Of a DNA stretch of 64,000 bases, positions 8,456 through 55,555 are shown one piece after another. The stretch is taken from contig OX597827.1 in assembly GCA_951406725.2 (NCBI GenBank), forward strand, positions 3,038,001 to 3,102,000, given 5' to 3'. The stretch is from Octopus vulgaris. Taxonomy: Eukaryota. The notes below the pieces were generated by a model that was given only the letters and a program-made list of their open reading frames with translations, had not been told where the DNA came from and did no database searches. The first letter of the stretch is position 1. Each line of letters starts with the position of its first letter. The position numbers and the translations under genes were made by a program.

Positions 8456-10540
<2,085 letters not shown>

Positions 10541-10549
10541 CACACTTAT

Positions 10550-10660: not shown

Positions 10661-11395
10661 ATTATCAACATTACTATTTTGTTGTTGTTGTTGTTATATT
10701 TAGAATTTTATTTTGAAATTAAAGAAAGATTAGAAAAAAAAATCTGTAGAAAAGAAGGCAACCTGCTCTGTAAAAATTTCTTCATTCGAAATCTTCGACT
10801 TGGAGAGATATTGATCCAAAGTTGAGCTGCTCCATAAGGCAAGAATCATTTATCTTCCTCACATGCACAAACTGCATGTCAGGAAAGCTGTGTCACATTT
10901 TCAATGCCTCTTCCATAATTTTTTTTTCCTCTCAAAAGGAGCAGAGCAGTAACCTGCTAGTATGCACACACTAGCTTTCCAGATATTACATTATGTAAGT
11001 GCGTGCGTATCTAAGCATGTACATGAATGTATATCTGAATATATGAATCAGTCTATCTATCTATCTTTCTATGTATCTATCAATCTATCTATCTATATAT
11101 CTATACACACACACACACATACATTTGGTTTCTATTATATATATATAAAATAGCGTTTATATGTGTGTGTAGAGAGAGCGGGGGAGAGACACAGACAGAG
11201 AGACAAAGAGAGATCTATGTATGTACACACCATAGAACTTCTGTTCAATACAGCACACTCTCCACAATATAGCTCCCTCTCTCCCCTCGACTCTTCATTT
11301 CCTCTCCTTAGTTTTACATTTCCTCTTTTCTTTTTCAAGTACAAATTCAGTCACCAACAGTGTTAATTTTACATATCTTCTAGGTCAATACGCAC

Positions 11396-18969: not shown

Positions 18970-20320
18970 TTACGTCAAAAGTATCAACCAAGATTTATTC
19001 CTAACTCCAGCTGCTGTAATCAACTCATCGAGTTTCTTGAGGACGTTACCCAAATCACTGATCACGGATCCTGGGTGGATGTTGTTTACCTGGACTTTGC
19101 TAAGGCTTTTAACTCTGTGCAACACAAAAGACTTATGGTGAAGCTCTCTGCATTGGGTGTAAGAGACGAACTCTATAACTGGTTGAAGTCCTTTATTTTC
19201 GGCCGAAAAGAGGTTGTCACAGTTCTAGGACAGCACTCTTCGCCCTATGAGATGACATCTGGTGTACCACAGGGATCTGTTCTTGGCCCCCTTTTATTTG
19301 TTGCATATGTTAATGACATAGATGCCAACTTAAAGAATGCCACAGTGCTGAAATATGCAGATGACATCAAGCTGTACCTCGAAATAAAGAGGTCAGATCC
19401 TGTACACTATAAATCTCTATTGCAAGCAGACTTGGACACAATGTAGCAGTGGATCATGGACTGGCAACTCAAGCTGGCTGTGGAAAAATGTACCACCATG
19501 TATTTTGGGAAGAGAAACCCAGCGTCCACCTACTGCCTCCACAACACTAATCTCAAAAAGTCTTTGTGTGAACGTGACCTGGGTGTTACTGTCAACAGTG
19601 ATTTGCGTTGGACAAAACACATCGCTAAAATTGTCAAAAAGGCTGAGGGTGTCTTGGCATCACTCACCAAGTCCTTTGGGAGCCGCTCTCCGACTATCTA
19701 TCTGCGGCTTTATATAGCTATGGTAAGACCTCACCTGGAATTTGCATCACCAGTCTGGAACCCCTATCTTGCCCAGGATATCAATTGTCTGGAAGCCATT
19801 CAGCGATGTGCAACCAAAAGAATACCCTCCATCAGGCATTTGCCATATTCTGAACGCCTTACTTCTCTGGACACATTGAAACTCCGACATCTGGCAGCTG
19901 ACTTGGCAGACACCCATAAAATTATCAACCATCTTACAAACAATAACTCTGAGCACCTTTTCGAACTCCACCCGTCTAACACCCGTGGACATGTTTACAA
20001 AGTCAGAAAACAGCACAGCTCTCATGACTTTAGGAAACATTTTTTCACGCTGAGAGTTGCTGAAGTATGGAACAAACTGCCGGCATCAGTTGTTAGTTGT
20101 CGGAGCACTGCATCCTTCAAAACTTCCATGCTTCCTGAGATTCGCCAACACTACACTTGATTTTCTCCCCTCCATACACACGCAAGCATGTATCTGACTC
20201 ATACATTGTTCGCTTTCCAGACATTTGTACATTACTGCATATACTTTATACGCACTTTCTGACAAGTTGTGGTGCACCTGAGCACTGTATACAATCATTT
20301 CATTATTATTGTTATTATTA
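18970..20320 (+). mobile_element. 5'-truncated CR1-clade LINE: RT domain with one in-frame stop, plus 3' UTR and (TTA)n tail
   Basis: ORFs 19075-19446 and 19456-20160 are in the same frame: VYLDFAKAF, GVPQGSVLGPLLF, YADD, ERDLGV, VRPHLEFASPVWNP, FFTLRVAEVWNKLP. TAG at 19444-19446. 3' UTR ends GTGCACCTGAGCACTGTATACAAT(att)n. Confidence 0.92.
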
Positions 20321-28669: not shown

Positions 28670-29087
28670 ATTTATGTGTGTATAATATATATGTACATGT
28701 CTATATAATTTCTGAGTATATATATATATTATATAATACTCTTTTATGTATTACTAGTATATATTTGTGTAGCCAGTCTTTGCATGTGTATCTATTCTTA
28801 TAATACTCCCTTTTGTTTTGGAATAAATAGACATAATAGAATGTCCACTGGCTGATGCATGTCATTTTTGTATTCCCTCCATCTTCTTTTTGCCATATAA
28901 ATTAAGGGTAAACCATTTTTTACCCCTGCCCATATATGGCATTCGTTGGCAAAATTGCCACGCAATAACCAGCACTTGGGTATTAATAATTGGGTATACT
29001 ACCAGCAGTATATTGGATAGGTACTATCCCTTAGTTGGTTGGTTTCCCGACCTCTAACTCTTAGAGAAATATATATATTTATAAATA

Positions 29088-29883: not shown

Positions 29884-29945
29884 ATAATATAACGGTTTTA
29901 TAGCCATTAGCTCAACATATATTTCTAAATGGTATATCCTAACTA

Positions 29946-30027
29946 TCTCTGATGAGATTCATCTTAAAATGATTTTAATTTTATAAATTAATTATCTAAA
30001 GGTTTCAGAATTGAAACAGCTGTCAGA
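29946..30027 (+). ncRNA. Minimal type I hammerhead ribozyme motif HH1 (GUC cleavage after 30024)
   Basis: TCT-CTGATGA(29949-29955)-GATTC...GAATT-GAAAC(30013-30017)-AGCT-GTC-AGA. Stem I TCT/AGA, stem II GATTC/GAATT with a 47-nt loop, palindromic stem III. Lies in a ~200-bp segment flanked by (TA)n on both sides. Confidence 0.7.
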
Positions 30028-30090
30028 GATGTTGTCATTTTATAATTAATAATTTTATTAATTACCTCTCCATTTTCTCCTTATTCTTTA

Positions 30091-30140
<50 letters not shown>

Positions 30141-30141
<1 letters not shown>

Positions 30142-30518
30142 TCTTTTACTTGTTACTGTCATTTCACTGCAGCCATGCTGGGGCACCACCTTTAATCAAG
30201 CAAATCGACCCCAGGATCTATTCTTTGCAACCCCAGCACTCACTCCATTGGTTTCTTCTGCCAAACCACCAAGTTATGGGGACGCAAACAAACCAGCATC
30301 TGTTGCCAAGTGATGGGGGGACACACACACACACACACATACGCACATATATATGACAGGCTACTTTTGGTTTCCGTCTACCTATTCCACTCACAAGGCT
30401 TTGGTCAGCCCGAGGCTATAGTAGAAGACACTTGCCCAAGGTGTCATGCAGTGGGACAGAACCTGGAACCATGTGGTTGGTAAGCAAGCTACTTACCACA
30501 CAGCAACTCCTGTGCCTA
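30141..30518 (-). mobile_element. SINE family A
   Basis: Reverse complement match with several T>C changes in the tail half. Confidence 0.85.
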
Positions 30519-30594
30519 CAATAAGCATATGAATAACATATGTGTATATGTGCATGTATAATGTATATATATATATATATAACATATATATATC

Positions 30595-30882
30595 ACTGTG
30601 ATCACATGACCGACCAGACCATCAGATGTTGCTACTTCGCATTGTTTTAGCCTTTAAATGACGCCACCCTGCTGGCTAAGCAAGCAGGCCAACAGAAGAA
30701 AGAGTGAGAGAAAGTTGTGGCGAAAGAGTACTGCAGGGATCGCCACCACCCCCTGCCGGAGCCTCGTGGACCTTTAGGTGTTTTTGCTCAATAAACACTC
30801 ACAATGCCCGGTCTGGGAATTGAAACCGTGATCCTACAACCACGAGTCTGCTTCCCTAACCACTGGGCCATTGCGCCTCCAC
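30595..30882 (-). mobile_element. tRNA-derived SINE family E
   Basis: Minus-strand head TGGAGGCGCAATGGCCCAGTGGTTAGGG...GGTTTCAATTCCCAGACC (A and B boxes). Inserted in (TA)n. Confidence 0.7.
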
Positions 30883-32010
30883 AATATATATATATATATA
30901 TACATACACATACACACACACACACACAGATTGATAGATAGATAGAGAGAGAGAGAAAGAGAGAGATGAATGTATGTACGAGTGAGTTTTGAATCAATAA
31001 CCTTGAGTCCAATATTTTGTTTTGCCCAATGGCTTCGCCAAGGACTGAATGAAATGATGCGGTTCAGTTGGTTGAATAAGGAACCAGGCAAAAGAATGAA
31101 AATATACATATATATATATATAAATATATATATAGTTAGAGAATAGCCGGATATAGAAAAAGCAGGGTGTGCTGGTGGGTGTGTAAACCAAGTTAGATGT
31201 GGTGGAGGAGAGGTAAGTATTTACAAAAGCTAGCAGTGATGGGCCATTGAAAATGACTGCAATCATATGAATTACTTATAGCAACCAATCAAAATATTGT
31301 GTATATTATTTATAAATGCATAACAAGGTATGTAAAGGATGTTTCTATTATTCTGTCAGAGGCTAGTATCAAGATTTGAGCATGAAATGAGATTGCCTGA
31401 TTTAGCTGTCAGAATTGACAGAGTATTATAAACAGCAGTGGTAGAGTATAAGAAAAATTGTGGTCTTTTTAGTAAATCTTTGTTTAAATCCCACAGTACA
31501 TTTGAATAAATATTTCAAAGAACAAATAAAAAATCCTTTAGACATATCATTGAAATAAACGATCTTCATTTAAGCCAATGAAGGTGACTGAGCTTCTATT
31601 TTTATGGGGAATTCAGACAATGACGGAAGCAATGTTCAAATCAAAGTACATTGTTATACTAAACAACAGCCAAAATACATGCATCACGCACAACAAACAC
31701 ATTCTGACATTGGTGTATCTCTCTAAAGTAGCACCAACACACAGCCATAATGTAAGAATAAGCATGCAGAGGTACCTATAAGTGTGTATTTATATCAGAT
31801 TTAATTTTCAAATGAATAAATCTTCAAATTTATTAGCAAATTGTAATTTGGAATCTCAGACATTTAGGATCCTTCTCAAGAGACATTTGGGGAAAAGTTT
31901 CTTTGCGCAAACAGATCAATAGATTCTAAGTTAAGATCTCACACTTAAATGCAAAAGGGAGACATACATAATTCAAGTTATACACACACATACATGTGTG
32001 TACATATGTT

Positions 32011-32044
<34 letters not shown>

Positions 32045-32071
32045 TGTTTGTGAGTGTATGTGCTTGTGTCT

Positions 32072-32455
32072 CTTTACTCTTTTACTTGTTTCCGTCATTT
32101 GACTGCAGCCATGCTGGAGCAGTGCCTTTTTTAATTGAGCAAATCGACCCCAAGTCTTATTCTTTGTAAGCCTTGTACTTATTCTATCAGTCTCTTTTGC
32201 CGAACCAGTAAGTTACGGGTACGTAAACACACCAGCATCGGTTGTCAAGCGATGTTGGGGGACAAACACACACACATATATATATATACGATGGGCTTCT
32301 TTTCAGTTTCCGTCTACCAAATCCACTCACAAGGCTTTTGGTCGGCCCGAGGCTATAGTAGAAGACACTTGCCCACGGTGCTACGCAGTGGGAAGGAACC
32401 CGGAACCATGTGGTTGGCAAGCAAGCTACTTACCACACAGCCACTCCTGCGCCTA
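32072..32455 (-). mobile_element. SINE family A
   Basis: Reverse complement match. Confidence 0.88.
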
Positions 32456-33517
32456 TGTGTAAGAGCACATGTACGCTTGCAGAAAGAGGGAGAGAGAGAG
32501 AGAGAGAGAGTAAGCAAATACACTGCTGAGCTGTGTTGACATGCTGAATCAGTGAGATGCTTTTCAGTCTTGATTACAACCAGCTCAATTCAATTATGTC
32601 CCTAATTCTTTTAAGACAGACATCATCATCATTACTAAGGCTTATTTAATTATTTTTCCCAAGAGAAAAATATTTGCTGAATCAATATATATGTACTTAA
32701 TGACGTTTAATATTGATTTCTAACATAGGTACAAAGCCTCAAATTCTGAGAGAAAGGCATAGTTGATTTAATTGATTCTAGCACTTGGTTGGCACTTATT
32801 TTATTGATTTTGGAAAGATGAAAAGCAATGTCGATCCCAAGATTTAAGCATAGAATGTGCAAAAAAGACATAACCAAATACTGCAAGGCATTAATTTGAC
32901 ATTCTACTGATTCTGCCAATCAACTTGGCCACAGTAGAATAATTCTTTTCAGTAAAAATCTGAAAAGAATTGTTGTACTCCTACACTGGCTTGACAGAAA
33001 TTCATTTAAAAAGTTATCATACCAACACATGAGTTCTTTATCAAATGCTGTTACAAAGAAAATAGAATTTTGCTTCTGAGGCATATCTCCTAAAAGAAAG
33101 ATAAGTGTAAATCTACAAATATTACATGGTTTGTATTGGACAAAACTCTCTGTTTAGTAATGATTCGAAATTATGCAATTTATTTTTGATAAGAAATATC
33201 ACATCATAAACCACTCACCCTGTCCAACCCTCTGAACCGCATCACTTCCATTTATTTCCTGTTACTTTGGAATAACAGAGGATATTCTCTGACACACCTT
33301 CATCACCATCTCTTTCTTTTCCAACTGGGGTAGCCATGTATCTTGTCTAAAGCCAGACATCTTTTTCTGTCCCTCTATCATAATTTAACCTTTCATCACC
33401 TGACACAAATCTGCCTCCAGCAGTACAGCTCCCTCTCCTCAGTTGAGGAGTCTGGCAAGTTACTTGGTGACCCCACTGATGCTGATGCCAATAATAATAA
33501 TAATAATAATAATAATA

Positions 33518-34073
33518 GCCCTCATGCGATATCAGGCAGTGGCTCTCATGGCTTCTGATCTTAACTGATTGGAAGTGTTATCAAGTACATTATTTTGTCT
33601 TGGTATAAAAGATGGGCTACAGCAGATATTCTGCTCAAAACCACAGATTTGCTTATCAGTTTTTTTGGCCTTAACCAGTTGACCATGTCCCTTAGTGGTT
33701 GACAATATGTGCATCTCTGATCACGAGCAGAAGTAGTAGGGGAGCATTATAGCCATGTGTTGAGAGGGATTCTTTGGGGTTTGAATAATTCACCTCTGGA
33801 AACATGGGTGTTTCGTTCAACACCTTTAAACAACCCTTATTCAGGAACCTTTTGAGAGGGATGGGTTACTGGACCAGAAGAAAATTCTAACTGGGCCCCA
33901 CCTGCAAGGTCATGTGCTGTTTATCTTGATATGAGATCACCATGTCATGCACACATGGTTATGATGCATGTGCCTAGTGTACCCTTATCAGACGAGTAGT
34001 CATGATGGGTATACAGGGCTTTGTATATTTTACCCCAGTGTCACTTTGATGGCATGCACTGCTCTCTCACTCA
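33518..34073 (+). mobile_element. Non-autonomous element family D inserted in (TAA)n
   Basis: About 550 bp, matches 6173-6710 in inverse orientation. (AAT)n at 33490-33517 and 34073-34110. Confidence 0.8.
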
Positions 34074-34569
34074 ATAACAATAATGATAATAATAATAATG
34101 ATAATCATGATTATAATATACATCTACATATATATGAAGAGAAGAACTTTAAATTGTTTTACTTCAGCCATTGTCAAAGTTTGGGAAATAAGATTTCTTG
34201 TACAGTTGTGTTATATTTACCTTTGCAAAATGACATTATATTCCAATATCACTGAACTTCACACACACACAAAAAAACTTGCACTCAGGTATGCCAGCAT
34301 TTGAACACACATGTAGCATATACATACACCAAGAAATACACATAGCTCATGTTTTATTTTTTAATATATTTCAGCTTTTATATATATTTATTTACTTTTT
34401 ATGTAATTTCTAAAAAGAGTAATCCAGAGAATTCTTCACAATAAAAAAAAATGGAAATTGTATTCTCTATATTAGGATACACACATACACACACACACAT
34501 GCATATATAGTTATTATGTGTACATATACACACTCATACACACAAATAGACATTTATGTAAACATTTTA

Positions 34570-34744
34570 TGTATATGTATGTGTTAAGATGTATGTGCAT
34601 ATAAATGTGTGTGTATATTTATGTGTATGTGCAATACATGCACATATATATATATACATATGTGCATATATATGTATATGCATATATCTACATATAAGTA
34701 TATATGTATGTATATATCTATATATCTATCTATCTATATATATG

Positions 34745-34793
<49 letters not shown>

Positions 34794-35220
34794 GTACATA
34801 TCTATGCACATATATATACATGTATATAAAGCATAAACTTGCATATATGTGTGTTTGTGTATATATATATACACACACACTTATATATCAATAATGCATA
34901 AACATCCATGTATATATATGTATATAAAATGCATAAATATGCATTTATATATATATATATAATGTATAAATATGCATATATATATATAATGTATAAATAT
35001 GCATATATATATATAATGTATATATATGCATATATATATATAATGTATATATATGCATATATATGTGTATATATATATAATGTATATATATACATATATA
35101 TGTGTGTGTGTATATATATAATGCATAAATATGCATATATACATATATATATATATATATGTGTGGTTCATATGCATGTATGCAGATATCTATATATATA
35201 TGTGTATAAATGTATAGAGA
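34570..35220. repeat. (TA)n-based microsatellite with repeated AATGTATAAATATGCATATA units
   Basis: Direct reading. Confidence 0.9.
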
Positions 35221-36662
35221 GTAAAAGAGAGAAGGAAAGACAGACAAAGAGAGAGCTATATACTGTGAAAGATTTGAATGATTGTATATTATACAATCAC
35301 ACAAAAACACACATACACACACAAGATCAAATCATGCATAAATATATACCTGCATATGTATGTGCATGTACATGTATGTATATGTTGTTGAAGAAACCTT
35401 CATTATTCTCACACTGTGATACTAGTTTTTCACATCCCAGCAATATTATCCATTTTTCTTCTCAATATTAATTCTTTTTAATATTCTACATATGTCTAAA
35501 ATTGAACTCTATGGAACAATAACACACATAAGCATGCATGCACTCACAGAAACAGAGAAACAGATGCACTCAGACACACACACACATACATACAAAACAT
35601 ACAAGCATGTACACACATGCAAACACATGAGTATACATACAGAAGCATGTGCATGTAGAAATATACGTACGTTACAAATATGCACACAGCTAAATAAGTG
35701 TGTAAATATATGTGCTAATATAAGCTTACAATATTTCGAAGATACTGAGATGGCAGAAATGTATGTAATTTATATATATATATTTTTTTTAACTTACTAT
35801 AGTTAGATTTACTGTTAAATCATCTTAACTTAGTTATCGAGTAGAGATAAAAATAGGCTTTAAAATACAGAAAAAGCATTTATCTCATTCCTAAATTAGG
35901 AAGAAAGATTGATAAGTGCTTTGTAGTAGGACACGGTTAACTGGTCAAGCAATTTGATATGTATTTTGAATGCCGCCAATTCGTCTTTTCTTTCCCATAA
36001 TCATTTCTCAGAAATTTTTTTTACATTAATATCAGAGCAGATAATTCATAATTTTGATTCAAAGATTTATTCTCATTACAAATGTAGCACCAAGATAGGA
36101 TACTTCACTATGTTGCACACAAATGACTGGTGAATTATTTTGGTCAGGATATGAAAGTACAGTTAAAATAACAGGAAGAACTTCCTACGTCTCATTGGCA
36201 GAATCTTTCAATCAAAAATCTAGTTCTGCTTATTTTTGGTTTACTGTACTCTAAATGCAAATTCTGCTCTGGTCAACTTTGATATTTGTTTTTGTAGTAT
36301 CTTTTCAGGTTTCGGATCCTAGTGAGAGCCATGTCCAGGATAATGAATTGACAGTATTGTTAGGATGTTAGATTAGATGTCTAGCTTGCATGGGTTTTAG
36401 ATCTATATGTACTAAGTTCAAATTCTACCCCTGTACAGATGCTTTGTGCCAACCATTTTACCATGAGAGCACTCCTGTCTAAGCAGCAATTGGGCAGCAT
36501 GGTTGGTTAGATCTACAAGTAGAGAGAAGTTGGCTGGGGCCAGCTGAGATTTGACCCAACTATGGAATAATAATAACTAATTGTAATGAAATGGAAATTT
36601 AAGGAGATTGAATGATAGATATACTATTAGAGTAATTGATAATACAGTTGCATGACAGATGC

Positions 36663-36875
36663 ATGATCCAAGTCCCAACTGTATTTATGTGATAGTTTCA
36701 TGGCTCAAGTCCCAACAGTAAACCTGTTACTGACAAGTAAATAGGTTATGGCTCAACTCCAAGGAGTAAACCTTTCACCAACAAGTGAATAATCATGGCT
36801 CAATTCTCAATAGTAAACTTTTCACTGACAAGTGATAGGTTGATGGCTCAAGTCCTGTCAGTAAACCTGTTACTC
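36663..36875 (+). repeat. 47-48-bp minisatellite, about 4.5 diverged copies
   Basis: Units start ATGGCTCAA at 36700, 36748, 36795 and 36843, each with AGTAAAC; the three complete units also carry ACAAGT. Confidence 0.85.
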
Positions 36876-37164
36876 TTTCCAGTTTCAAATTCCTGCTTAC
36901 TATATCTAATATAATTTATACAACAAGCAGATTTAGAGGAAGGAAATGACACACCTGTTCCTTTTGTTGTTTTAATATCTTTTAGACAAGTAAGTTGTAA
37001 ACATTCTGATATCAAACATTTCCAGAGTTAATTCTTGACCTATGATCAAAGATATTCAACCACCATGCTCATCCTATTTGTAAAGTAAGGCTACATTAAA
37101 CACATTTTTTTTCTAAAGATGGTAGTGTATATTCTGAGAGGAATTTGGTTGCTATTCATTGACA

Positions 37165-37332
37165 AGTTGATTACATCAACCTCAGTGCCTGAATGGTACT
37201 TATTTTATCAACCTCTAAAGGATGAAAGACAAAGTTGACCTCAATGGAATTTGAGCTCAAAACATAAAGAACTAGAAGAAGTGTTGTTAAGTATTTTGTC
37301 CAACATACTAACAATTCTGACAGCTTCCCAGA

Positions 37333-37364
<32 letters not shown>

Positions 37365-37925
37365 TTACTAAGAATTTCGCTCAGCAAGCTAATGATTCTG
37401 CCAGCTTGTCACTTTAATAATGATTAATAATAGTAATCCTTTTTACTGGAAGCACAAGGCCTCGAATTTGGGGGAGAGGGATAGTCAATTACATCGACCC
37501 CAGTACTCAAATGGCACTTAATTTATTGACTCTGAAAGGATGAAAGGCAAAGTCGACCCTGATGGAATTTGGACTCAGAACAGAAAAAATACCACTAAGC
37601 ATTTCACCCAGCATGCTAACGATTCTGCCAGCTGGCTGCTTTGATGATGATGATGATGATAATAATAATAATAATAATAGTTTAAAATTATGGCACAAGG
37701 CCAGCAATTTTAGTGGGAGGTGTACTTATTTAATTGACCCCAAAAGGAATCAAAGGGTAAGATGATCTTGCAGCACAAGACCTCAGAATATAAATCTGGA
37801 AGGAATGTCATGGAACATTATGTCTGACATGCTAACGATTCTGCCAGCTTGCCACCTTAATAATGATAATGTAATTGATGAACCCCTGCCTCCAAATTTC
37901 AGGCCTCGTACCTATAATAGAAAGG

Positions 37926-37957
<32 letters not shown>

Positions 37958-38179
37958 CATTATTATTTTAGCATTCTCAGTGAAATGCAGAATCTTTGGT
38001 ACACCAGATGAAATGCTTAGCAGCCCTTTCATCTGTTTTTATGTCCTGATTATAAATTCTGCCAAGGTCTACTTTGCCTTTCATCCTTTTAGAGCCAATG
38101 AAATAAGTACCAGCTGAGAGTTGATGTCATTAACTCCCCCAAAATTTCAGGCCTTGTACCTATACAAGAACGAGTTATT

Positions 38180-38217
<38 letters not shown>

Positions 38218-38790
38218 AATTATTACATGCTATTCTGTTTAGTGGGCATCATGAGGTTTTGTAACAAGATTCCTCGAATTTCAAGAATCTTTCTTAAGAC
38301 TCTGGCAGAATAAAGAATTGCTCTTTGCTGCAAGTTAACAATATGACCCCCAATTCCAATATCCTTCAGTTTCCTAGGTAAAGTTTGGGTGTTGTGTAAA
38401 GTCCACCATTTACCATAGGTATAATTGACATCTTGGTCTTCCACAATCTCTTCATCTATTTGACTCAGTTCTAGCATTTCTCAATTTCTTTCATATCCAT
38501 TCTATTATCATAGAGTATTGTAAAGCCTATGGGGTTTTTTTTTTTGTCTTTTTGACTTTAATCATACATGGTCTTCTTGCTTCAATATTATGAATATAAA
38601 ATTGAGCTGGCAGAATCGTTGGTGGCATTTCATCCATCTTTACCCTCTATGTTCAAATTCCACCAAAGTCAATTTTGCCTTTTACCCTTTCGGGGTCAAT
38701 AAAATAAGTACCAATTAAGCACTGGGGTTGATGTAATTGACTTACTCCCTCCCCTCGGAATTGCTGGGCTTGTGCTAAAATTTGAAATCA
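37165..38790. mobile_element. Second cluster of SINE B copies (three minus, then two or three plus) within (TAA)n arrays
   Basis: Minus copies at about 37165-37330, 37435-37635 and 37680-37860. Plus copies at about 37995-38180 and 38604-38790. Confidence 0.75.
38222..38400 (-). mobile_element. 3' end relic of an R4/Dong-like LINE with (TAA)n tail
   Basis: ORF 38223-38477 contains LQQRAILYSARVLRKILEI, the typical C-terminus. Followed on minus by (TAA)n at 38180-38215. Confidence 0.55.
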
Positions 38791-39717
38791 GTATTATTGA
38801 TATCACAATGAAGATGATAATGATGATGGAACAGTGATAGAGGCCTGCGATTGCCATGGGCCTTACTCCTTCCTTGAAGCTCAGCTAATAAAAATAAAGT
38901 AAAAAAGAAACAACAACAACAACAACCATGGAACAAGGATACTACATTGGTGAATCTAAACTATGGAAGGCTGGAATGATAGAATTATGCCTAGTCTAAG
39001 AGGCCACCATAATAACCATCGGTAATACAAGCTAAATCCATTGACCTGTCAGGCAACAGTTCGTAGTTCTTACACTTGAAAAACTAATAATATCCCTTCA
39101 CGACAAAAGATTCCTCTGGCTTCAATTATCTGGGATCTCTGTTAGCAATGCCAAAGAAAATATTCATTCATGTAGCAATTTCCCCCCAAACCTTCCAGAA
39201 GATTAGTTGCTTGACATAGGGAGCCGCTAATGGATATCTGATATTGCTTTACGATGTCATTTGGGGAATTTGTTTCAGAATAAAAGAAAAACAGAGAAGG
39301 AAAAAATGGTAAAGAAAAGAGAAATAAAAATCCAAATCTGCTTCAATACACTCACAAATTATGTCATTCCTCTTGCTCTCCACACTCTTCCTCTACCCTT
39401 TCTCTCTATATCTCTCTCTCTCCTCTTCTATCCTCTTGTTATTTTCATATAGCTGTCTGTCAGTTCCTCTCATACAAAATTCACCTGTCTCTTTCCTTTT
39501 CTAAATTCTATCTCAGTGTCTCAATCAATCTGTCTGTCTGTCTGTCTGTCTGCCACTCTTCTTTTATAATCTCTGCCTTTATGTCTGTCTGTCTGTCGGT
39601 CCCTCTCATACACGGATTCACCCGTGTTATTTTTCAAATTCTGTCAGTCTTTTTGTCACACACTCTCTCTCACACACTATCATATAAACAAACATCCCTC
39701 TTTCCATCTCTCTCTCC

Positions 39718-39768
<51 letters not shown>

Positions 39769-39919
39769 ATCACATCCTATATGTCTATCACTCCTTTTCC
39801 CTGATACACACATACACAGATGTAAATACATAAAATTTCCCAAATTCCACTGAGAGGGTTGTATATATATATATATATATATATATATACTAGTAAATGT
39901 AAATATAGGTATTACAAAC

Positions 39920-40026
39920 CTGACAATCAGTAGCCATATTGGAAAGATGTTGGGATCACATCGACAAAGTACCATCTTGCTCAGATCTAAGATCCGGTGA
40001 AGTAAGTTATAGAATTATTCAGAATC
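39920..40026 (-). other. Candidate 107-nt exon of the minus-strand gene (5' UTR with upstream ATGs, or first coding exon MVLCRCDPNIFPIWLLIV)
   Basis: Long polypyrimidine tract ttttttttctttccccttcttttcaaag|G at 40027/40026 and donor CAG|gtttgt at 39920/39919. Unique sequence. Confidence 0.5.
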
Positions 40027-40217
40027 CTTTGAAAAGAAGGGGAAAGAAAAAAAAAAGATATGAAAATAACATGAATAAATAAATAAATAAGAAAATTAAA
40101 TTAAATTAAATTGAAAAAAAACATACAAAAAATAAAATAGAAATTTGCTCCCTTATTTAAAAAATTACAATAAAAAAATAAACAACACAGAGAAACGGTA
40201 AAGTTGGTGGCATTTAC

Positions 40218-40645
40218 TTTCCTTGGCTCATGAAACCCCTTCCATCTTTACCTACCCCTAACCCACCCATGACATTTTGCATTGTTGTTGTTACTGCTGC
40301 AGATGTTGTTGTAGTTGTTGTTGCCAATGCAGCTTTTAATGGTAATTGGTTGTGGTTGTGGTAGTGGTGGTAATGGTAATGATGAAGCGCAGGGGAGTAG
40401 GAGAAGAGGGATGAGGTAAAACAAGATGAAGGCAAATGATGGTAGCAGTGGTGGTGGTGGTTGTGAAAGAGGCGGAAGAATAAGAAAGCGGTGGGGGGGG
40501 AGGGGTTGAAAACGGGGGGGGGCGAAAAGAAAGCAGAGAACAGGGTTGTCAAAAATATGCGGAATGTCAGACTCTCCCCCCCCGACCCCTTCCCCCTCCC
40601 TCCCTCCCCCCACTCATCCACCGCCATCACCATCACCATCACCAC
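40218..40645 (-). other. Candidate GC-rich 5' UTR exon
   Basis: Acceptor tactctctttctcag|GTGG at 40646/40645. Donors TAG|gtaaag (40251) or AAA|gtaaat (40217). Poly-G/C and triplet low-complexity sequence of the kind often seen in 5' UTRs. Confidence 0.3.
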
Positions 40646-40829
40646 CTGAGAAAGAGAGTATATGCAAGCATCTCATCACTCATCACACAGTGTTCAGTGT
40701 TTAGTTCCCAAGAAGTCAAAACAATGCAATTTAAGAAGAAAAAAAAATAATAATAATAAATATGAAACAAGTAACATGGCTCCCCACCCCATCATTCGCT
40801 CTCTCTCTCTCTCTCTCTCTCTTTCTCCT

Positions 40830-41100
40830 CTTCTAGGTGCAATCGACGCAGTAGGGATGCCGTTCCTAACGGAAGTGTGCAGCAAGACTAAGATTATTTT
40901 ATGCCTTTGCAGCAGCTAATTCTGCAACTGTTATTTCCGGAATTGTACTTGATTTCTTGGGAAAGCTTATTGATTTTCTTTTTTTTGGTTCCTCTTCAGA
41001 AAATCAGGACAACCTGCAGCCAATCCAGTTTATAGCATCTCAACCAGATGTTGCTGGCATTCGATAACTTTTACGCTCATTCTTCCATTATGACTCCACT
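40830..41100 (-). promoter_or_regulatory. Putative promoter/first-exon region of the minus-strand gene
   Basis: Unique, locally CpG-containing island upstream of the candidate exons. CTATAAA on minus at 41035-41029, GCCAATC at 41019-41025, E-box CAGATG at 41045-41050. Confidence 0.3.
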
Positions 41101-41223
41101 CTAATGAAATATATAAGTACTTTTGTGCATTTAAGGGGAGAACGCTCAAGTAGCGAATGCACACTTTCTGAATTGATACAAGATGCATACAGGCACACAT
41201 ACACAGGTTCTGATAGATTCATA

Positions 41224-41266
<43 letters not shown>

Positions 41267-42095
41267 GTTGTTTGTGTTTGTGTTCATATATATATATATA
41301 TATTACACACATATATATATATGTTGTTTGTGTTCATATATATATATATACATATATTTATTTACATACACACACACATAGAGAAACATGTACTATGCAT
41401 GTTTCTACATGTTCAGTTATATTTATAATTATATCTACGTGTACGTGTCTAAATCTATATTTGCTCCTCAATCACACGTGTATGTATATGATATATATGT
41501 GTGTGTGTGTGTGTGTTTGTGTGTGTGTGTATTTCTATATATATGGAGAGAGAGAGAGGTGGTCAAACAAGTGTTATAAGACAAAGAAAGGAGCAATCAT
41601 TATCTAAATAGATCGAAATGTGTTGGGAGTCATTTGCAATGCTGTCAAACTATGAAGATTTTAGACTCAGAAGACATGTTCATTTGATTCAAACCTATAT
41701 GATTTTTTTGCTAGCATTTATCTGAAGTATGGAGTAACATGCTTTGACTTATTCCAAGCTGTAATTTCATAAAGATACACACACACACACACATTTATAT
41801 ATAATAAATGCAGGATTTAAACATTAGCTATTATAAGTTTCATGTTCAGATAGTACAGTAGTCAGACAAGCTGTCTTCATGTGCTGTGAACTATCCTGCA
41901 ATTGTTCAAGCTCAAAACGAAACATGGCATGTTATACAAGTTCATCTAATTACTGAAGTATCTGAGTATGAAGCTTATAGTAGCCCACATTTAAATCCTG
42001 TGTTTATTAAATATTTATTTCTAATTGGATGGAACCCTTTTTTTTGCTGAACCCACAAATAATGAAACTGAACAATATATACAGATGTTGCATGA

Positions 42096-42208
42096 ACTCT
42101 GAAGATGATGGCATTTGTAAAGGTCATTCACCTTTTCAAATCACTCGACTGGTTGAGTAAATGGAACTATGAACGCACCTAAAATGCATGTCAGAAACAG
42201 CTGTAAGT
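42096..42208 (+). ncRNA. Minimal type I hammerhead ribozyme motif HH2 (GUA cleavage after 42205)
   Basis: ACT-CTGAAGA(42099-42105)-TGATGGCATTT...AAATGC(A)TGTCA-GAAAC(42194-42198)-AGCT-GTA-AGT. Stem II is 11 bp with one bulge; stem I ACT/AGT. Followed by AATAAA. Confidence 0.7.
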
Positions 42209-42483
42209 CTATTACATACAAATAAATAAACGTGTAAAATCCATAATTTATGCTTTTCTTTGTATATCACTCTGTGAAAACATACCATGTTAACTTGGTA
42301 ATGGAACCGTGTATTTGCAGAGTCAACTGGTGATGGACTTCAACTTCAGATCTTGCCTTTGGACCACCTGGAGTTCTGTACCAATCAGAAGACTTTTGTT
42401 AGTCTGATGTATTTGCATCAGCAGAGAGCTTAAGGAGTATTTTGCCCAGATTACTAATCCCTTAGTAATTCTTTACACACACA

Positions 42484-42546
<63 letters not shown>

Positions 42547-42939
42547 AAACACACACATGAAAAGGTTGAACACATGCTAACCTGGAAACAGCCATAAGAC
42601 TCTATTTATTGGATTCATTTGGGACTTCCTTTTTGGATTATTGCAAACTGTTATCTCATCAGCTTGGACATCTTAATTTATCTGTATGCATTTATGCAAT
42701 TACTTATCCGACTTTGATTTGGGCCAAAAATGACACTATTACATGTATATATATGTTTTTGTATGTTATCTGCTCAGCTGCTTATAATGGCTTATATATG
42801 CCCTCTGTGTTTAGATATGTGTCGGTTTTGATGAGGAGTATTATTGACCTTGGAACTTGTCTCTTTCAAATTAATACTTTAATGTAATCCCCCAATAAAT
42901 CGAGGCCTATGCTGTTACTTCTTGAATAGAGTATATATA

Positions 42940-43650
42940 TATGATTGAAAAGAAAGTGTTGTCCCATTTTTGACATCATTTTGAGGCTACTTATTCAACA
43001 CTTTTGGTAAAATTTTTACATCCTACTCTTTGCTTTCTATCAGTCATTGCATGTTTTATGGAACCTAAAGGGTTCTCTCCAACAACGAAAGCGGCAAGAA
43101 ATATTTGTTGCATCTATGGAAATGAAGCTTGAAGTGTCCAGAAATGCCAACAATGGTTTGTCCGGTTTTGCTCAGGAAATTTTTCTCTTGCAGATCCCCC
43201 TTTGATTTGGACAATCAAGTTCTGTCGACACTGGACTTCCAAGGCAATCTGCATGAAAACTAGCAAAACAGATCAAATCAAGTCACATTTTAATCATAAG
43301 GTACTTTCATGAACAAGAAAAAGTGACTAAATTTGCTGAGTGGGTCCCCTATCATCTAGGCGCTTTGCATCTTAACCAAAGTGTTGCTCTCAGCTCATCA
43401 TTGAAACCTAGACTTGCTACTGAACCTTTCCAAGACAGTGTCTTCACATATAAAGAAAAGTGAGTTCTCTATAACTATATTCAATGAAAATAAGGGTTAG
43501 CATGCAATAAAAAAAAAACAGAGCACATCCTCAAATCAGGACAACACCCCAAGATCAAGTTAATTTCTGTGTTCAGTGAGATATGAAGTGTGTCATCTAT
43601 AATGGAATATTAAACTGAAATGAAAGAATAATTGCAGAGAAGTATTGTCA
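42940..43650 (+). mobile_element. Degenerate mariner (Hsmar1/SETMAR-like) transposase relic
   Basis: AARNICCIYGNEA*SVQKCQQWFVRFCSGNFSL at about 43090-43195, WVPYHL at about 43341 and EK*VLYN at about 43455. Confidence 0.7.
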
Positions 43651-43933
43651 TAAATTGACATCATGTGATTGTTTTAATGAAGCATCACCATCATTACAAG
43701 CAATGTTCTTTGTTTCCAGTCTTCCATGGTCATAAAGAAATATTACCTCACCTGGAATTAGGTGAAGCCTGGCAATGGGAAGGGCATTTGGCCATAGAAA
43801 ATCTGCCCTAAATTGTGTCTCAATCACACAACATAGAAAATGGTCATTCAATGTTTATTGATTACATGCACCTACACATATATGAAAAAAAGAGAGAGGA
43901 AGAGAGAGAGAGATGTACTCACAAACACACATG

Positions 43934-43972
<39 letters not shown>

Positions 43973-45392
43973 ACTTCACATACACATATTCATTCACACA
44001 CAACCACACAGTTTTTGATTTCCTAGTCTAATGTTTATGACCTCTTTCACTCACATTCAAATACACACACACACACACACACATGTACGTACGTATGTAT
44101 GTATGTATATATGTAGGTATGTACATGTGGGAGTGAGAGAAAAAAGAACACAATCATTAGACAAGTAAATCAAAAATTCAAAAGAATTTGATGCTAATTA
44201 CAGACGGTACAGTATTTATTTACATTTTCATTAAAAAATGCAATTTGTTTCAGCTATTAAAAATGCTCTTCAGAGAATTGCAGAAGGAATATTTGAACCC
44301 ATCACATATATCTATAGATACATTCTAGGATTCCTGCAAAATTACCAGATTAACTAAATAAGTAAAAAATAAAGGAATGGCAAAAAATATCTCTAGCGAA
44401 CACCATATATTAATGCCAATATGGGATGGGGAAATGATCTATATGGAGAAATATTGTAGAACATATATAACTATAAGGGGTGGAGTTAATTGAATAAAGA
44501 AATATATAAAAACAGTAAATTCAATCATATCACAAAAAAATGTTTTGGGAAAAATGCAACGTCAATAAGTGAGGTGTTTAAATTAGGGATATTACAGGAA
44601 AAAAGGGAAATAACCATTGCAAGAATTCATAGAATTCGGAGATAAAAGGGAGACAGTGATGTAAAATAAAGGGAAAAAATAAAGAAATTAATGAAGGATC
44701 AAAGAGGTACACAGACATGCATGTATATGTGTGTATACATATGCACACACATATATGTATGTATATGTGTGTGTATATATTTACGCACATATTTGCATGC
44801 ACAAATATGTATATGTGTGTGTGTGTGTGTGTGTATATATATACACATACACACACACACACACAGACACACATATATATATATAAGAAAATATACATAT
44901 GCATACAAGCATAAGAATGCATGTATACACTTAGGCACAAACCAGGCAATTAAAAGCTAATTATCACACACTTGCATATGTACAACAACAGCCAACCTTA
45001 TTAGCGCATCCATACTTAATAACATCCATAATTTATATAAGAAAAAAAATGCTTACAGGAAATATATATGTCCAAAAACATCAAGTCCTAATTACTTATG
45101 CATAAAATCAAACTCTAAATGATAATGATGAAAGATAACTGTAATATAAAGTGTTACATTATTTCACTTCATTTCCTATTAAAGATATTTTAAATCATAA
45201 CATCCATCTGAAATTGTTTAAAATGTAATAGTTAAATTTTAAACTGGTTGACACTTTAAATTCCGTTAAAGTACTTCATAATATTAAAACAACAGGAGGA
45301 AAAGTCCCGTACAAATGAGATGATATGAAACTTACTATCAGCTATAATTCTACATATATATATGTGTGTGTTTGAAAAAGAGAGAGAGGGAG

Positions 45393-45445
<53 letters not shown>

Positions 45446-46199
45446 ATACAGTCTAGTGGTTATGGTGTTACACTCTTGATAGCAAGATAATAGGTTCAAT
45501 TCCTGGACTGGGTGCTGCATTATATTTCTACTTTTGCTTCAGGCTGATCAATGGCTTGTAAGTGAACCTGGTTGATGGAAACTGTGAGGAAACTTGTGTG
45601 TGTGTGTGTGTGTGTGTTTGCAGTTATGCCTGACTCCCACAACAGCTTGATATTCCTGCAACCTAGTGGTTTGGCAAAAGACATTGATAAACTTATTACC
45701 AGACTTAGAATAAATATGAGGGTCAATTTGTTTGACTAAAACCTTTTAAGGTAGTGCCCCAACATGGCTTCAGTATAATGAATGAAACACATAAAAAATA
45801 GAGATGCATCAACGTTAGAGTAAAATGAAAGACAGAAGCTTTGGGTAAACAGATCGGGTGATTAGTGGAATTGGGAAAGTCAGAAATACTTATTGAAATC
45901 ATGAATAGAGATGGAGAGTAAGATACAGGTTAAGTGTTGGTTATGCAGATCCTCAGTGTGAGGATGTAACATGAGAAGAAGTGGTGGCCACAAAGAGATT
46001 GTCTGACATATTCATTCCTGAGTAAGCATGAAAGAATTACTAAATAAATTAGATTAGGTAAAAAAAAAAGTAAAAAGAAGTAACAGATGAATTTAGCAAT
46101 AAAAAAAATGGAAATTACACGAACGTATATAAACAAGAGATACAAATATTACAGGCACTCCCCCCCCACACACACACACTAACTAAACATAGACACACA

Positions 46200-46430
46200 T
46201 AGAGATATACGCATGCGCAAATGAAGACAAATACAATAGAAATACAAAATGGCTGACGGTTAGTAAGGAGAGACACACAAATAAGAAAGAAGAAAGCAAA
46301 GGACCACTGATGCGGTCACAGAAGTGTGACGAAAGAACTCTGACCGAAATAAGATTAAGATTAATGTAAAAAGTGAATAACACTGAAGCAAAGTAACACC
46401 AAATATATAGTGCGTGTGTTTTTATTGGCT
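46200..46430. promoter_or_regulatory. Cluster of promoter-type motifs (NRF1-like, YY1-like, CCAAT)
   Basis: ACGCATGCGCA 46209-46219, CAAAATGGCTG 46245-46255 and ATTGG 46424-46428 in a CpG-containing island. Could instead be a Penelope-like terminal repeat relic. Confidence 0.25.
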
Positions 46431-49400
46431 AAACTGGCAAAATGACCTTTCCTAAATACAACAATAAAACGGAAATTATTGTATTGAATAGAACATTAAA
46501 AAATTACATATAAAAAATTGTCAGTCATGAAATGGACTGATACCACTGTAACTGGCCTATCAGCAAAGTATAGACATTAAGTATAATACTCAGATAGCTA
46601 TTTTAATTTAATACAGCCTCAATTGCATATTTAGGATTTTTATTCAGCTATTTGTGAATGCTTTATTTATTGTTACCTATATCAGGACTGGTGAATTTTT
46701 ATCCAGGTACATGACTGGCTGAGTACATGTCACTGAAAAAGCCCCAAATATGTATCTGGCATTTTCAATGATCATTGTAGGTGTGATTTTTTTTTTTTGC
46801 TTTCCTCTGATTATTAATTTTGTTTTTAACAAAGCATATCCATAAGTGATGTTATCTCAGGACAGACACTACAATAACTGGCCTATCAATATACACTAAA
46901 TATGATATATATAGATGTGTGTAAAAAAATTGATTAAATATATATGTGTGCCGTAAATCAGTAAATGGCAAAAGTAATACAAGTCAAACAGGAAGCTGAA
47001 ATTTTCTACTTAGATATTTACCTGTGGGGCAAAGAAAGATTCTGAAAATATCTGTCCTGAAATTTTATGATGGCACAATCCTATTCTATATTGAGGGCCT
47101 ATTAAGTTTGAGGATTTTAGCAAAGACTATTTCATAAGCCTCTGTGGCACAGAGATTGCATAGTTTTCTATTCCTTGCAAATAATTTAGAGCAAGAAATA
47201 ATTTTTCAGGTTTAGCTATTTTGTGCATTTGAAATCTTTAAATTCTAAGCATAACTAGAAAGTGAAACAGAAGTGCTTCTGGAGATTTTCTTGAATGAAC
47301 AGGTATGTTGATTGTAGTGAAATATGAAGGAAATACTTGTAAGTGCAGTATATGCACTAGTGGGGTTAGCTGTTTGTACTTAATATTAATACATTATATA
47401 CTTTATTGAAAAGAGCTCAAAGGGTATTTTTAGGGAATGTATAATTACAGTTAAAGTGAGTAGTAGAGGTTGTATTAGTTAGATTAATTTCAGCAAGGTT
47501 AGGACAAGCAAAATCAAGTGCAAAGCCTAGGGATGTAGAATATAAAAATCTTTATAGTACTCATATGAAAAATTCTGTAATATTTATGCTGTTGTGGAAG
47601 ATTATTTTAAGTAAGCTAACAGAAAAAAAAAAGTTGCTATAAGCATGGCTACTTCTAAGTTAAGTGCCATTATCAGTATTTTCAGAATTTTTTTAGAATA
47701 CTCTATTTCTTACTTTATGCAAGCAGTCCTCATTGCTTTGAACCTTAGTTAAACAAGTGCATTAGGACAAAAACCTCAGGCCATTGAGAAAATATGTTAA
47801 TAAAACATCAGTTAATAAACCATATTTTGCAGTTAATAAAACATACAACTAGAAAATGCCTTGCAGTATTGAATTATGCCTTCTTTTACATTCTGAATTC
47901 AAATCCCACTGGAATGAAACATTAATTTCATCAATCCAAGGTTGATAAGAAACAGTACCAGTCATTTAATGGATATCAATAAAATAAGGCATTCGTCAAA
48001 AACTGGAGTTGATTTAATCAGCTATACCACTCGATTTAGGGTCTTGTTTCAGTAGTGGGGACCAATATTGATGATGATAATGATGAAGACAACAACAAAA
48101 GATGATGATGACAATGATGATGATTAAATTGTAGATTATTTCAGAAAAATACTACCAGTATGTTCAGCAACCTGCTGCCAAATTTCAGATGGTTTTGGTA
48201 AATAAAAGTTTAAATTTAAAATGCAAAGAAAAATTTTCAAAAATAAATGTATGATAGAATAAATAAAAAGTAGCTAGATAAATATATTTATTCTCTCATT
48301 TTTCCCAACTACATTCTTAGAAACACCATTACACCCTCGTTATTAAACTTGCCCCACATACAACCCACTGCACCACTCAGTTACTAAAACTGTTTCAGTG
48401 ATGAGGTTTCTACCTTCGAGATAACACAATCCCATCTCTACTTCACCCATTTTATTTTCATATACTTATGAAGGATGAGGAAGAGGAGGAAAGAAAAAGA
48501 AGAGGATGAAGAAGAAAATAAAGAGAAACAAAAAAATTTCTTTTAAATAATGAAAATTTCAAGAATTACATAAACTCAGCTATTTATTTCCATTGCTATC
48601 TTTAATAGAGATGAAGAGTGGGGGATTGAAGAGGAGCAAAAGGAAAGAGAAAATAAAAGAGAGATGACAGAGACAGAGAAAAGATGCAAGAAATAAGGAA
48701 GAGTGAGTAAAAAGATAAGCAATTTTAATGGAAAGACAACTCTGTTTACCATCTCTTATCTTTTACTTATTTTTGGTTTTGGACTGTGGCCATGCTGGGA
48801 TAGCACTTGAAAGGGTTATTGGAACAAATCAACACTAGTACTTATTTAGATGCCTGGTACTCATACTTATTCTATCCAACCTCTTTGCTGAACTGTTCAG
48901 TTAAGGTGATGTAATGAAAACAAACCTTGGTTGGCAAACAGTGTGGGAAAACACACACACACATGTGAGGCTTCCACACAGTTTCTGACAGCCAGCTTCA
49001 TAGTCAAGGCATTGATTGACCAAGATTTATAGTAAAAGACACTTGCCAAAAATGCCACACATTGGGAGTAAGTCTGAAACGGCAAAGCAAGCTTCTTAAC
49101 AATGTCGCTGTTGATGCAGTTTTCAAGTCAGTGCCACGATGTGAAGATAGTGGAATGGTAAATCCTTAGAGTACTGAACAAAATGCCTCGTGATAGTTCT
49201 TCAGGCTCTTTACACTCTGAGTTCAGATTCCACCAGGGTTAGCTTTGCCTTTCAACTCTTCATGGTTGATGAAATAAAATAACTGGCACTCCATAGGATA
49301 TGATGATATCATTTGATCCACAGAACAACTTATGAAATTATCTGGGAGTTTCAGCATGGCGCAGAAAGTGACAAGGCCAGCCCTGACTGGAGCAACATGA

Positions 49401-50697
49401 AATAAAGTGTCTTACTCAAGGACACAACACACTGCCAGGAATTGAACTCACAACCTTATGATCATGAGCCAAATACCTTAACCACTAAGCCATTTGCCCA
49501 CTGATCAAATAAAGTACCATTCAAGTATTGTAGCTGATAATAATGAATATCCTTTGCCATCAAATTCACTGGCCTTGAGTTTTTATCAGAAAGAATTATC
49601 AGCCTTCCAAAGTGAGAGAGAGAGAGAGAGAGAGACCGTTTTGTTATTTTGTTCCATGAAGTAATCACAGGGAGAAAGGGAAGAGACACAAAAATATTTT
49701 AAGATCTCCAAGACTGGAAGAGAGGAAGGTATCCTCACCCCAGACAGTAGGCTTATTACAGAATGGACTTTGCTAAAGGTACTCATGGACCAAGTGACAG
49801 AAGCAAGCAAGTTGAATTATTAAATCTACAAACGAGGCTTTCACATTTTCGCTCTACAAAATTTCTCTCGCAGAGAATTACTGAAACAGAGGAATGGTAA
49901 AAACTGCAGACACTTGCATAAGGCACCACAAATTCAGATCAAATCTGAAATCTCATGATATTTTTATCAGCTTAAAAAGTCTTTGAGCAATACAGATGAA
50001 ATATGTAAGGTGATGTCAATAAGCTTGACTTTCTCACCAGAATTGTGCAAAGGTTTTTTTAAACAGTTATATAACTTTTATGTAAGGGCAAGCATTGCTG
50101 TGTGGATCAGAAGCTTGTTTCCCAACCATGAGGTTTTACCATTCACTTTTTCATGTTTGCATGGATCAGACAGACTTTGTTGAGGCAGATTTTCTACAGG
50201 TGGACATGTATACTGTTGACAACACTGACCTGTTTTCAAGCAAGGTAATATTTGCCCATAGCTGGACATGTTTGCATGAATTGATTGAAAATGAAAACCA
50301 TCGCCTGCATGATGGTGACAATTATCTACAGTAATCATGCAATGTCAAGACAAGGTGATGCCTACTCACACACACATACACGGCCATATACTTAAATATA
50401 TATGTATATACATAAATATACATACACATAGATATATATAATATATATATATATGTGTATGTATAACGGCCTATCTCTTACCTCATACATATATCTTTTG
50501 TATGATGTAAAAGGATAAAATCTCTTTATATGTATTAGTCGATGTTTTTGCACATGTATGTATATGCATATGCATGTGTTTGTTACCTGTGTATGTATAT
50601 ATATATATAGTCAATATATATATATTCATTCTTGTGTGTGTGTATTTTGTTTCATATTTATATTTGCATTTTTATATTTTTATAATTATACTTTATA

Positions 50698-50827
50698 ATC
50701 TCTGATGAGGCCTTGAGATATATATATATATAAGTAACTCATTTTTAACTGCATATTATCTCAATACATATGACTAATATAGGCAAAATGAGATACATTT
50801 ATCTACAGGCTGAAACAGCTGTAAGAT
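50698..50827 (+). ncRNA. Minimal type I hammerhead ribozyme motif HH3 (GUA cleavage after 50823)
   Basis: ATCT-CTGATGA(50702-50708)-GGCCT..AGATA...TATCT..AGGCT-GAAAC(50812-50816)-AGCT-GTA-AGAT. Stem I ATCT/AGAT, stem II GGCCT/AGGCT extended by AGATA/TATCT. Embedded in TA-rich microsatellite. Confidence 0.72.
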
Positions 50828-50993
50828 CCATTTTATATGTATCATTTTTATGGTATTATCTTACTTATTGATGTATACTGTTTTATTTTGTTGGATTTGG
50901 ATGTTCCTATTTATGTAGTTAATAAATAATATGAAATGATAATATCAGTAAGTCGATGAATGAAATTAATCTGTTCCTCCAGTTTCTTATTTG

Positions 50994-51030
<37 letters not shown>

Positions 51031-55243: not shown

Positions 55244-55555
55244 ACTTTTTCATTTCCTGAGCGTTAAACTAATACATCTGTTTGTTGTCTACACCACCTG
55301 TCTTCATCCTTTGTTTTTTTTTGTGAATTCTCCTTATATATATTTATAAAGACATATATATATATATATATAAATTGAGATAGGGGTTGTGAGTGCAACC
55401 CACCATGGGATAACATATATCCAATACACTGCCGGTAAAGCACCCAACAAAGTTAATACATAAATGTTCTATACTATATGTAGTGGGTTAATAAATTATA
55501 TGATTGGGTATTATCTGATAGTTGATTATTGATTAAGGTGTATTTCTCCATTTTC

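Follow-up and report, generated by a model that had tools for sequence, protein, structure and literature searches.

The 64,000-nucleotide (nt) window analyzed here, from the genome of Octopus vulgaris (positions 3,038,001 to 3,102,000 of contig OX597827.1, assembly GCA_951406725.2, forward strand), contains three complete type I hammerhead ribozyme motifs, A, B and C. All three can be read directly from the sequence, lie on the forward strand and are carried by copies of dispersed repeats (Table 1). An initial annotation, made from the sequence alone, had placed the motifs, their strand and their predicted cut sites at these positions, and the placement was confirmed by sequence and scan. The generic type I scan demanded both core halves, stems I and II of at least 3 bp and no more than 200 nt between the halves; it returned three matches on the forward strand, which are A, B and C, and none on the reverse strand. 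The motif was also commoner than in shuffled sequence, as anticipated: 200 local dinucleotide shuffles of the window averaged 0.22 loose and 0 strict matches, compared to three in the real sequence. Taken jointly, the results make it quite probable that the three motifs are type I hammerheads in the 3′ ends of 5′-truncated retroelements, namely coding Penelope-like elements of the Hydra clade in the case of A and C and likely so for B, with cleavage that is likely weak and confined to pairs joined through a common 8-nt palindrome.

Table 1. Hammerhead motifs and the repeat copies that carry them (positions within the window).
Feature	Position	Strand	Description
Hammerhead A	29946..30027	+	Cores 29949-29955 and 30013-30024; 57-nt stem II domain; predicted cut after 30024
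Hammerhead B	42096..42208	+	Cores 42099-42105 and 42194-42205; 88-nt stem II domain; predicted cut after 42205
Hammerhead C	50698..50827	+	Cores 50702-50708 and 50812-50823; 103-nt stem II domain; predicted cut after 50823
Copy A	29891..30089	+	5′-truncated 3′ end (piece of pseudo-long terminal repeat, pseudo-LTR) of Hydra-clade Penelope-like element, between two (TA)n runs; bounds from pile-up
Copy B	42090..42474	+	3′ end of old dispersed family with Penelope-like anatomy, ends in (CA)n; no open reading frame (ORF) linked
Copy C	50464..50996	+	5′-truncated 3′ end of Hydra-clade Penelope-like element; ends in (TA)n

The core elements CUGANGA, GAAA and NUH are present in type I order, together with stems I and II, in each of the three motifs. 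At the base of helix II (G10.1-C11.1 in hammerhead numbering) a G-U pair is found in copies A and C, while in B a G-C pair stands one step inward; G-C occupies the position in 9 of 15 aligned motifs of the C type and of the type of L292, a relative of family C described below. A perfect 8-nt palindrome, including a 4-nt loop, makes up helix III. On its own it would form 2 bp and the 4-nt loop, and its calculated folding energy is +2.4 kcal/mol as a hairpin and −11.1 kcal/mol as a duplex, i.e., the palindromic helix is unstable in a monomer. All three cores thus agree with the earlier assignment to type I hammerheads of Penelope type, palindromic in helix III. The 57, 88 and 103 nt between the core halves, taken earlier for AT-rich open loops, fold instead as a long irregular hairpin in each motif, though with a stability only weakly better overall than that of shuffled sequences (z of +0.7 for A, −1.4 for B and −2.3 for C).

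The published descriptor of minimal Penelope hammerheads specifies a helix II of 3–7 bp, a loop 2 of 3–10 nt and no loop 3 (PMC4209133). The window motifs, with their long inserts and 4-nt loop 3, lie outside this descriptor and are therefore a variant rather than a fit to it. Because of its limit on loop 2 and its lack of a loop 3, the descriptor would miss all three, in line with the prediction that a long stem II escapes short-motif scans. Searches against Rfam yielded no hammerhead among the 150 of 285 matches listed for the window at E up to 1, which were microsatellite look-alikes of microRNA and small nucleolar RNA (snoRNA) models, and none on 12 loci at gathering thresholds. A long AT-rich microsatellite-like array at 8300-10700 (GC 0.14 in 8001-10000) was the source of many of the spurious microRNA matches.

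Each window motif is a member of a separate dispersed family, so the initial annotation was right to expect several. With 40 candidates scored in each search, family A comprised 665 candidates (top copies 84–90% identical), family B 360 (71–83% identical over most matches) and family C 1,567 (top copies 90–94% identical). Within a family the copies coincide at the 3′ end and reach upstream to a variable extent; they terminate at microsatellites, in most cases (TA)n. Copy C has in addition suffered an internal deletion of ~400 nt of 3′ untranslated region (UTR) at a TA run (near 50592-50628); its two blocks align to a long copy, L190, at 87%. A second, inverted copy of the tail was found within the 3.2-kb locus at 13 of 29 family A loci, 8 of 29 family B loci and 5 of 29 family C loci. 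A second copy on the same strand was seen at one of the 87 loci, in family A, and at none in B or C. Thus, (TA)n targets, pseudo-LTRs, inverted 5′-truncated copies and an optional tail are all present; inverted copies and an anatomy of this kind have been described for Penelope-like elements (PMC8557442). Readings of the loci as an intron-hosted snoRNA or as E-boxes were dropped because the families are dispersed on both strands. The flanks presumably resemble an octopus short interspersed element (SINE).

Family C was walked upstream into L190, in which the hammerhead, a 3.15-kb UTR, a GIY-YIG endonuclease, an Asn-rich stretch and a reverse transcriptase (RT) are continuous. A search with the L190 endonuclease gave 150 scored relatives. 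The same 3′ core was present in 11 of the 20 relatives fetched: in all nine chosen for an open frame of >640 aa (L292-L300), where the identical core lies 2.1–2.5 kb past the stop, and in two outside that choice. L292, the relative of C, has an intact ORF of 947 aa counted from the first Met, in a unit of 5,579 nt that is flanked at both ends by 98% identical hammerhead-bearing repeats and ends in (TA)n. Many matches of the endonuclease search had identical scores, and the search for two-half motifs returned many near-identical motifs; the branch with L292, these sequences suggest, was recently active. In family A, the tail at L254 passes, with no microsatellite in between, to a start codon and to an RWK motif; at L253 a decayed ORF is followed, after one insertion, by a family A-type UTR on the same strand. 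While the L292 ORF is intact, the RT-endonuclease ORFs linked to A (L253, L254) and to C (L190) are broken. Judged from this organization, the parents of the truncated copies in families A and C are elements with their own RT-endonuclease ORF. Coding loci were found for both C (L190, and the intact relative L292) and A (L253 and L254), and the earlier view of non-autonomous elements mobilized in trans is not supported for these two families; for family B, no ORF was found.

In the window itself no Penelope RT was detected, as had been noted before, either by tblastn with two Hydra-type proteins or by Pfam analysis of 150 of 255 filtered ORFs, which returned only an RT of the long interspersed element (LINE) type. 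The latter, a broken gene at 18967-20157 (+; Pfam RVT_1, E 2e-22), was the only confident protein family match among the 150 ORFs scanned. Two short pieces without a hammerhead, at 28980-29082 (+; 73% identical) and 55356-55468 (−; 84% identical), resemble the outermost part of the 3′ tail in the L292 family.

The frame of L292 contains the motifs RWR at residue 50, DKT at 151, YRDD at 389, CxCX5C at 822, CxxC at 920 and CxH at 948, and family A has RWK; RW(K/R), DKT, CxCX5C, CxxC and CxH are motifs of the Hydra clade (PMC8557442). The frame matches an ordinary Hydra-type element of the same genome at 37% identity over 503 aa and carries an Asn-rich insertion (21% Asn across residues 521-820). 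A quick, midpoint-rooted endonuclease tree was built from unnamed relatives only (38 of 50, namely those with >640 aa). In this tree the palindrome-bearing lineages lie outside a 37-row group (support of 93 in the Shimodaira-Hasegawa-like approximate likelihood ratio test, SH-aLRT) that contains two octopus elements with a short UTR; the L292 family is grouped with A and C (81), and the short-armed family described below stands apart. The tree is compatible with common ancestry of the palindrome-bearing lineages, whose monophyly is beyond the reach of a quick tree; the core is kept among lineages with endonucleases only 33–46% identical. A protein of Argonauta hians named 'GATA zinc finger domain-containing protein 14-like' (P0003) shares 39% identity with the RT region of the L292 frame and is likely a misnamed Penelope-like element.

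The abundance of the motif was assessed in the whole genome (2.8 Gb, 227 contigs). The 3′ core with two flanking bases had 18,001 matches, compared to 32 for the reversed control, and accounted for 46% of the 38,813 matches obtained when the 4-nt loop was left free (control for the latter, 17,343). Both core halves were present in 6,396 matches and in none of the controls. The exact 5′ core preceded the 3′ core by 16–45 nt in 2,139 cases, by 46–75 nt in 1,424 and by 76–105 nt in 2,833 (controls 0), so that two thirds (4,257) have 46–105 nt between the halves; stem pairing was not demanded in these counts, and by our own arithmetic chance co-occurrence would contribute ~100 per spacing bin. Among 89 core sites sampled from the first 13 Mb of contig C1, 26 have the 5′ core and both stems, and 10 of these 26 intact motifs have >45 nt between the halves. 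The 89 sites group into 11 clusters and 8 singletons. At one two-half motif per 438 kb, about 20 of 43,750 windows are expected to hold three motifs by chance (Poisson, own arithmetic), and three motifs sharing one strand are a 1-in-4 event. The finding of three motifs in a single window is therefore unremarkable, and the high density stressed by the initial annotation is not special.

The commonest family with this core (L007, L354-L383, L412; 31 of the 89 sampled sites) is short-armed, with a stem II of 20–29 nt. Core position 4 is often C instead of U, each side of stem II has an extra base, the UTR contains a ~78-nt repeat, and at L412 a Hydra-type endonuclease lies 1.2 kb upstream. Other palindromic 4-nt loops (GATC, GGCC and TCGA) occur in the identical core frame on contig G000:C1, one of them as an inverted pair; these loci are likely further Penelope families with palindromes of their own.

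Of 150 copies scored in a very young Hydra-clade family with a 717-aa frame (L138, L145 and others; G000:C17:75342098-75345640), 134 match exactly along 181 aa of the endonuclease, and many are in tandem or in inverted pairs. The 3′ UTR of this family spans 240 nt, and its hammerhead is a distinct one in which core position 4 is C and the palindrome is odd in length; by eye this neighboring family resembles Hydra-1_Obim. One of its members beside a family C copy was rejected as the coding part of C, being a nested neighbor with a different hammerhead. At L488 (G000:C1:51645000-51652500) two long-armed motifs lie 1.62 kb apart in a direct repeat, 98% identical, with no match to the Penelope protein queries; the locus is either a partial tandem or a true non-autonomous derivative.

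The arm was followed in a fold survey, in which some loci overlap and a few motifs may be counted twice. In 14 of 22 family A, 4 of 4 family B, 34 of 34 family C and 8 of 9 L292-type motifs, stem II was closed at its base in the best fold; median stem II z values against shuffles were −0.2 for A, −0.5 for B, −2.0 for C and −5.0 for the L292 family. The arms of A, B and C are unrelated to one another, as proposed initially, but the proposal does not extend to C and its intact relative L292, whose arms are homologous. In the alignment of the 15 C-type and L292-type motifs, 95.5% of cells in stem II are paired, compared to 32–44% in slid controls. Seven of 27 pairs are changed on both sides, all of them within stem II, and none of 500 shuffles reached the covariation score of the alignment. 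The long stem II is likely, on these sequence grounds, a folded extension that selection has maintained in the parent elements; its role is probably structural or that of a binding site for the element's protein.

A number of observations weigh against the interpretation given above. No ORF could be linked to family B after four upstream walks, which gained ~400 nt more sequence; the first was dominated by a SINE in the query and the later ones gave 3 and 4 matches. Three B-like loci had no ORF either, and Hydra ORFs adjoining B copies in L312 and L387 were rejected as nested neighbors. Pfam and PDB sequence searches returned no name for the 960-residue frame, so its proposed identity draws on the motifs and the similarity to Hydra-type proteins. 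The stem II of family A is, by its median z, not stabler than shuffles, and a 3-bp stem I occurs in only 4 of its 22 two-half motifs; copy A is untypical in this respect (a 3-bp stem I in 3 of 26 copies scored), two contiguous pairs being the most frequent form (12 of 26). The number of covarying pairs was matched or exceeded in 104 of 500 shuffles, the 15 aligned rows amount to about three lineages with the structure derived from that same alignment, and a family's own stem II arms were each other's best partners in only 7 of 12 families. Finally, the ribozyme of an anole Penelope element, although it cleaved in vitro, was dispensable for insertion in vitro, and no RNA-seq ends were found at its cut (PMC11167929).

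It is unlikely, in our estimate, that the motif has ceased to be a ribozyme and is kept as a protein-binding or dimerization signal for the element's RT, with the catalytic core a by-product. Such a role would agree with a stem I of merely 2–4 bp, with the cost of the active monomer fold relative to the best fold (3.5–17.6 kcal/mol in all 12 motifs tested, the highest value being that of copy A), with C for U at core position 4 in 11 of 26 intact sampled motifs, and with the unimpaired insertion in vitro of hammerhead mutants in another clade (PMC11167929). However, lineages that diverged deeply, with UTRs that cannot be aligned, retain the rest of the core and the NUH triplet, and the anole motif did cleave, an activity lost upon core mutation (PMC11167929). 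Quite unlikely is that the families are non-autonomous retrozymes or SINE-like elements borrowing a Penelope enzyme in trans. Most copies are indeed short and without an ORF, family B has none linked, the 1.6-kb direct repeat of L488 does not match Penelope queries, and an origin of animal retrozymes from Penelope ends has been reported (10.64898/2026.07.22.740005). Yet A and C run on into upstream RT-endonuclease ORFs, the 5′ ends vary continuously, as in truncation, and the short ORF-less tandem repeats, each with a hammerhead, that define retrozymes are not what was found, a same-strand second copy within 3.2 kb being confined to the single locus mentioned.

Co-option of the three copies by the host, acting together in one transcript of the locus, is very improbable. 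A, B and C do share one strand and have both core halves intact, while only 26 of 89 sampled cores passed a similar test; but the ~20 such clusters expected genome-wide by chance, the lack of any identified host gene in the window (among the ORFs given to Pfam) and the 7–25% divergence of the copies from their families, the same as in other stubs, all argue against it. The three window stubs are likely inert.

We therefore favor the interpretation of the copies as 3′ ends of truncated Penelope-like elements. At full length the element is a unit of 5.6 kb in which a single RT and GIY-YIG ORF, containing the Asn-rich insertion, and a 2.1–3.1 kb 3′ UTR are followed by the hammerhead and a tail of ~65–375 nt; it is inserted in (TA)n and is often accompanied by an inverted 3′-end copy or arranged in partial tandem. 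Reverse transcription would start downstream of the hammerhead and usually stop early, scattering hammerhead-bearing stubs such as A, B and C. In the anole Penelope element, reverse transcription begins inside the RNA, downstream of the hammerhead (PMC11167929). Minimal Penelope hammerheads were found inactive as monomers and weakly active as dimers (PMC4209133), and by analogy the motifs studied here likely cleave themselves only in pairs. A lone helix III would be unstable, while two hammerheads, at the ends of a tandem transcript, could form an 8-bp helix III. The paired hammerheads would cut weakly and trim read-through transcripts to RNAs of unit length that begin ~510 nt ahead of the start codon. 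Sequence from both sides of the cut site is retained in the copies, so that the template for copying would be an RNA uncut at its 3′ hammerhead or re-ligated.

Hammerheads of Penelope-like elements, including those of octopus Hydra elements, are already known. The minimal ones (PMC4209133) have the same type I core, short helix I, palindromic helix III and pseudo-LTR location, and likewise occur as thousands of mostly single copies with some inverted pairs and many sequence families per genome. They differ in having neither the perfect 8-nt helix III palindrome nor the 4-nt loop, and their descriptor allows at most ~25 nt between the core halves, compared to the 46–105 nt seen here in two thirds of matches. 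The Hydra clade, including Hydra-1_Obim, shares the C-terminal GIY-YIG endonuclease, the clade motifs, the (TA)n targets and a hammerhead near the 3′ end (PMC8557442). Several Hydra-clade hammerheads also start helix III with ACAG and finish it with CTGT (PMC8557442), while that of Hydra-1_Obim differs from the window type. Described members are generally <3 kb with a loop 2 of 3–10 nt (Hydra rows of File S2, PMC8557442), in contrast to the 5.6-kb unit, Asn-rich insertion, 1.2–3.1 kb 3′ UTR and long stem II of the octopus branch. Metazoan non-LTR retrozymes (PMC7229834) are similar in their type I hammerheads, thousands of copies in a mollusc genome and likely Penelope origin; they are, however, ORF-less tandem repeats of ~300 bp that yield circular RNA, whereas the copies here are dispersed truncated ends of long coding elements. 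Naiad HHR_half_core elements (one octopus and one squid family; PMC8557442 File S1) also have cephalopod hosts, (TA)n targets and core halves 35–50 nt apart, beyond the descriptors, but are set apart by description, their endonuclease being N-terminal rather than C-terminal. A text search of the supplement with the Naiads (PMC8557442) gave 0 matches to the 3′ core, although a match split by a line break could have been missed.

The novel features are the long arm, the perfect 8-nt helix III palindrome common to divergent lineages and the long-UTR Hydra branch. The long-armed, long-UTR branch is undescribed in the literature searched, which did not extend to Repbase, Dfam and subscription journals, and Lunse et al. 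2017 may cover longer variants. Nor is the long-armed branch described in the available part of 10.64898/2026.07.22.740005, the supplements of which may list octopus families; the main text of the 2026 octopus repeat annotation contains no hammerhead, ribozyme or Hydra (PMC13282606).

More speculatively, and with considerable doubt on our part, the single 8-nt palindrome found in many divergent Penelope lineages may act as a shared dimer code, such that the transcript of any family would complete the helix III of any other and pairs of dispersed stubs in one host pre-mRNA, as in this window, would cut it. If so, the family-specific long stem II arms would serve, on a catalytic interface common to all, as the module for specificity or protein docking.

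A natural series for the roles of arm and palindrome is available here, in which a family with apparent recent activity, an intact ORF and a covarying long stem II stands beside relatives with arms of 21 nt to 105 nt on one core. The octopus genome also contains thousands of hammerhead motifs outside the minimal descriptor and below Rfam thresholds, and because such motifs escape both, hammerhead counts in other genomes may be low.

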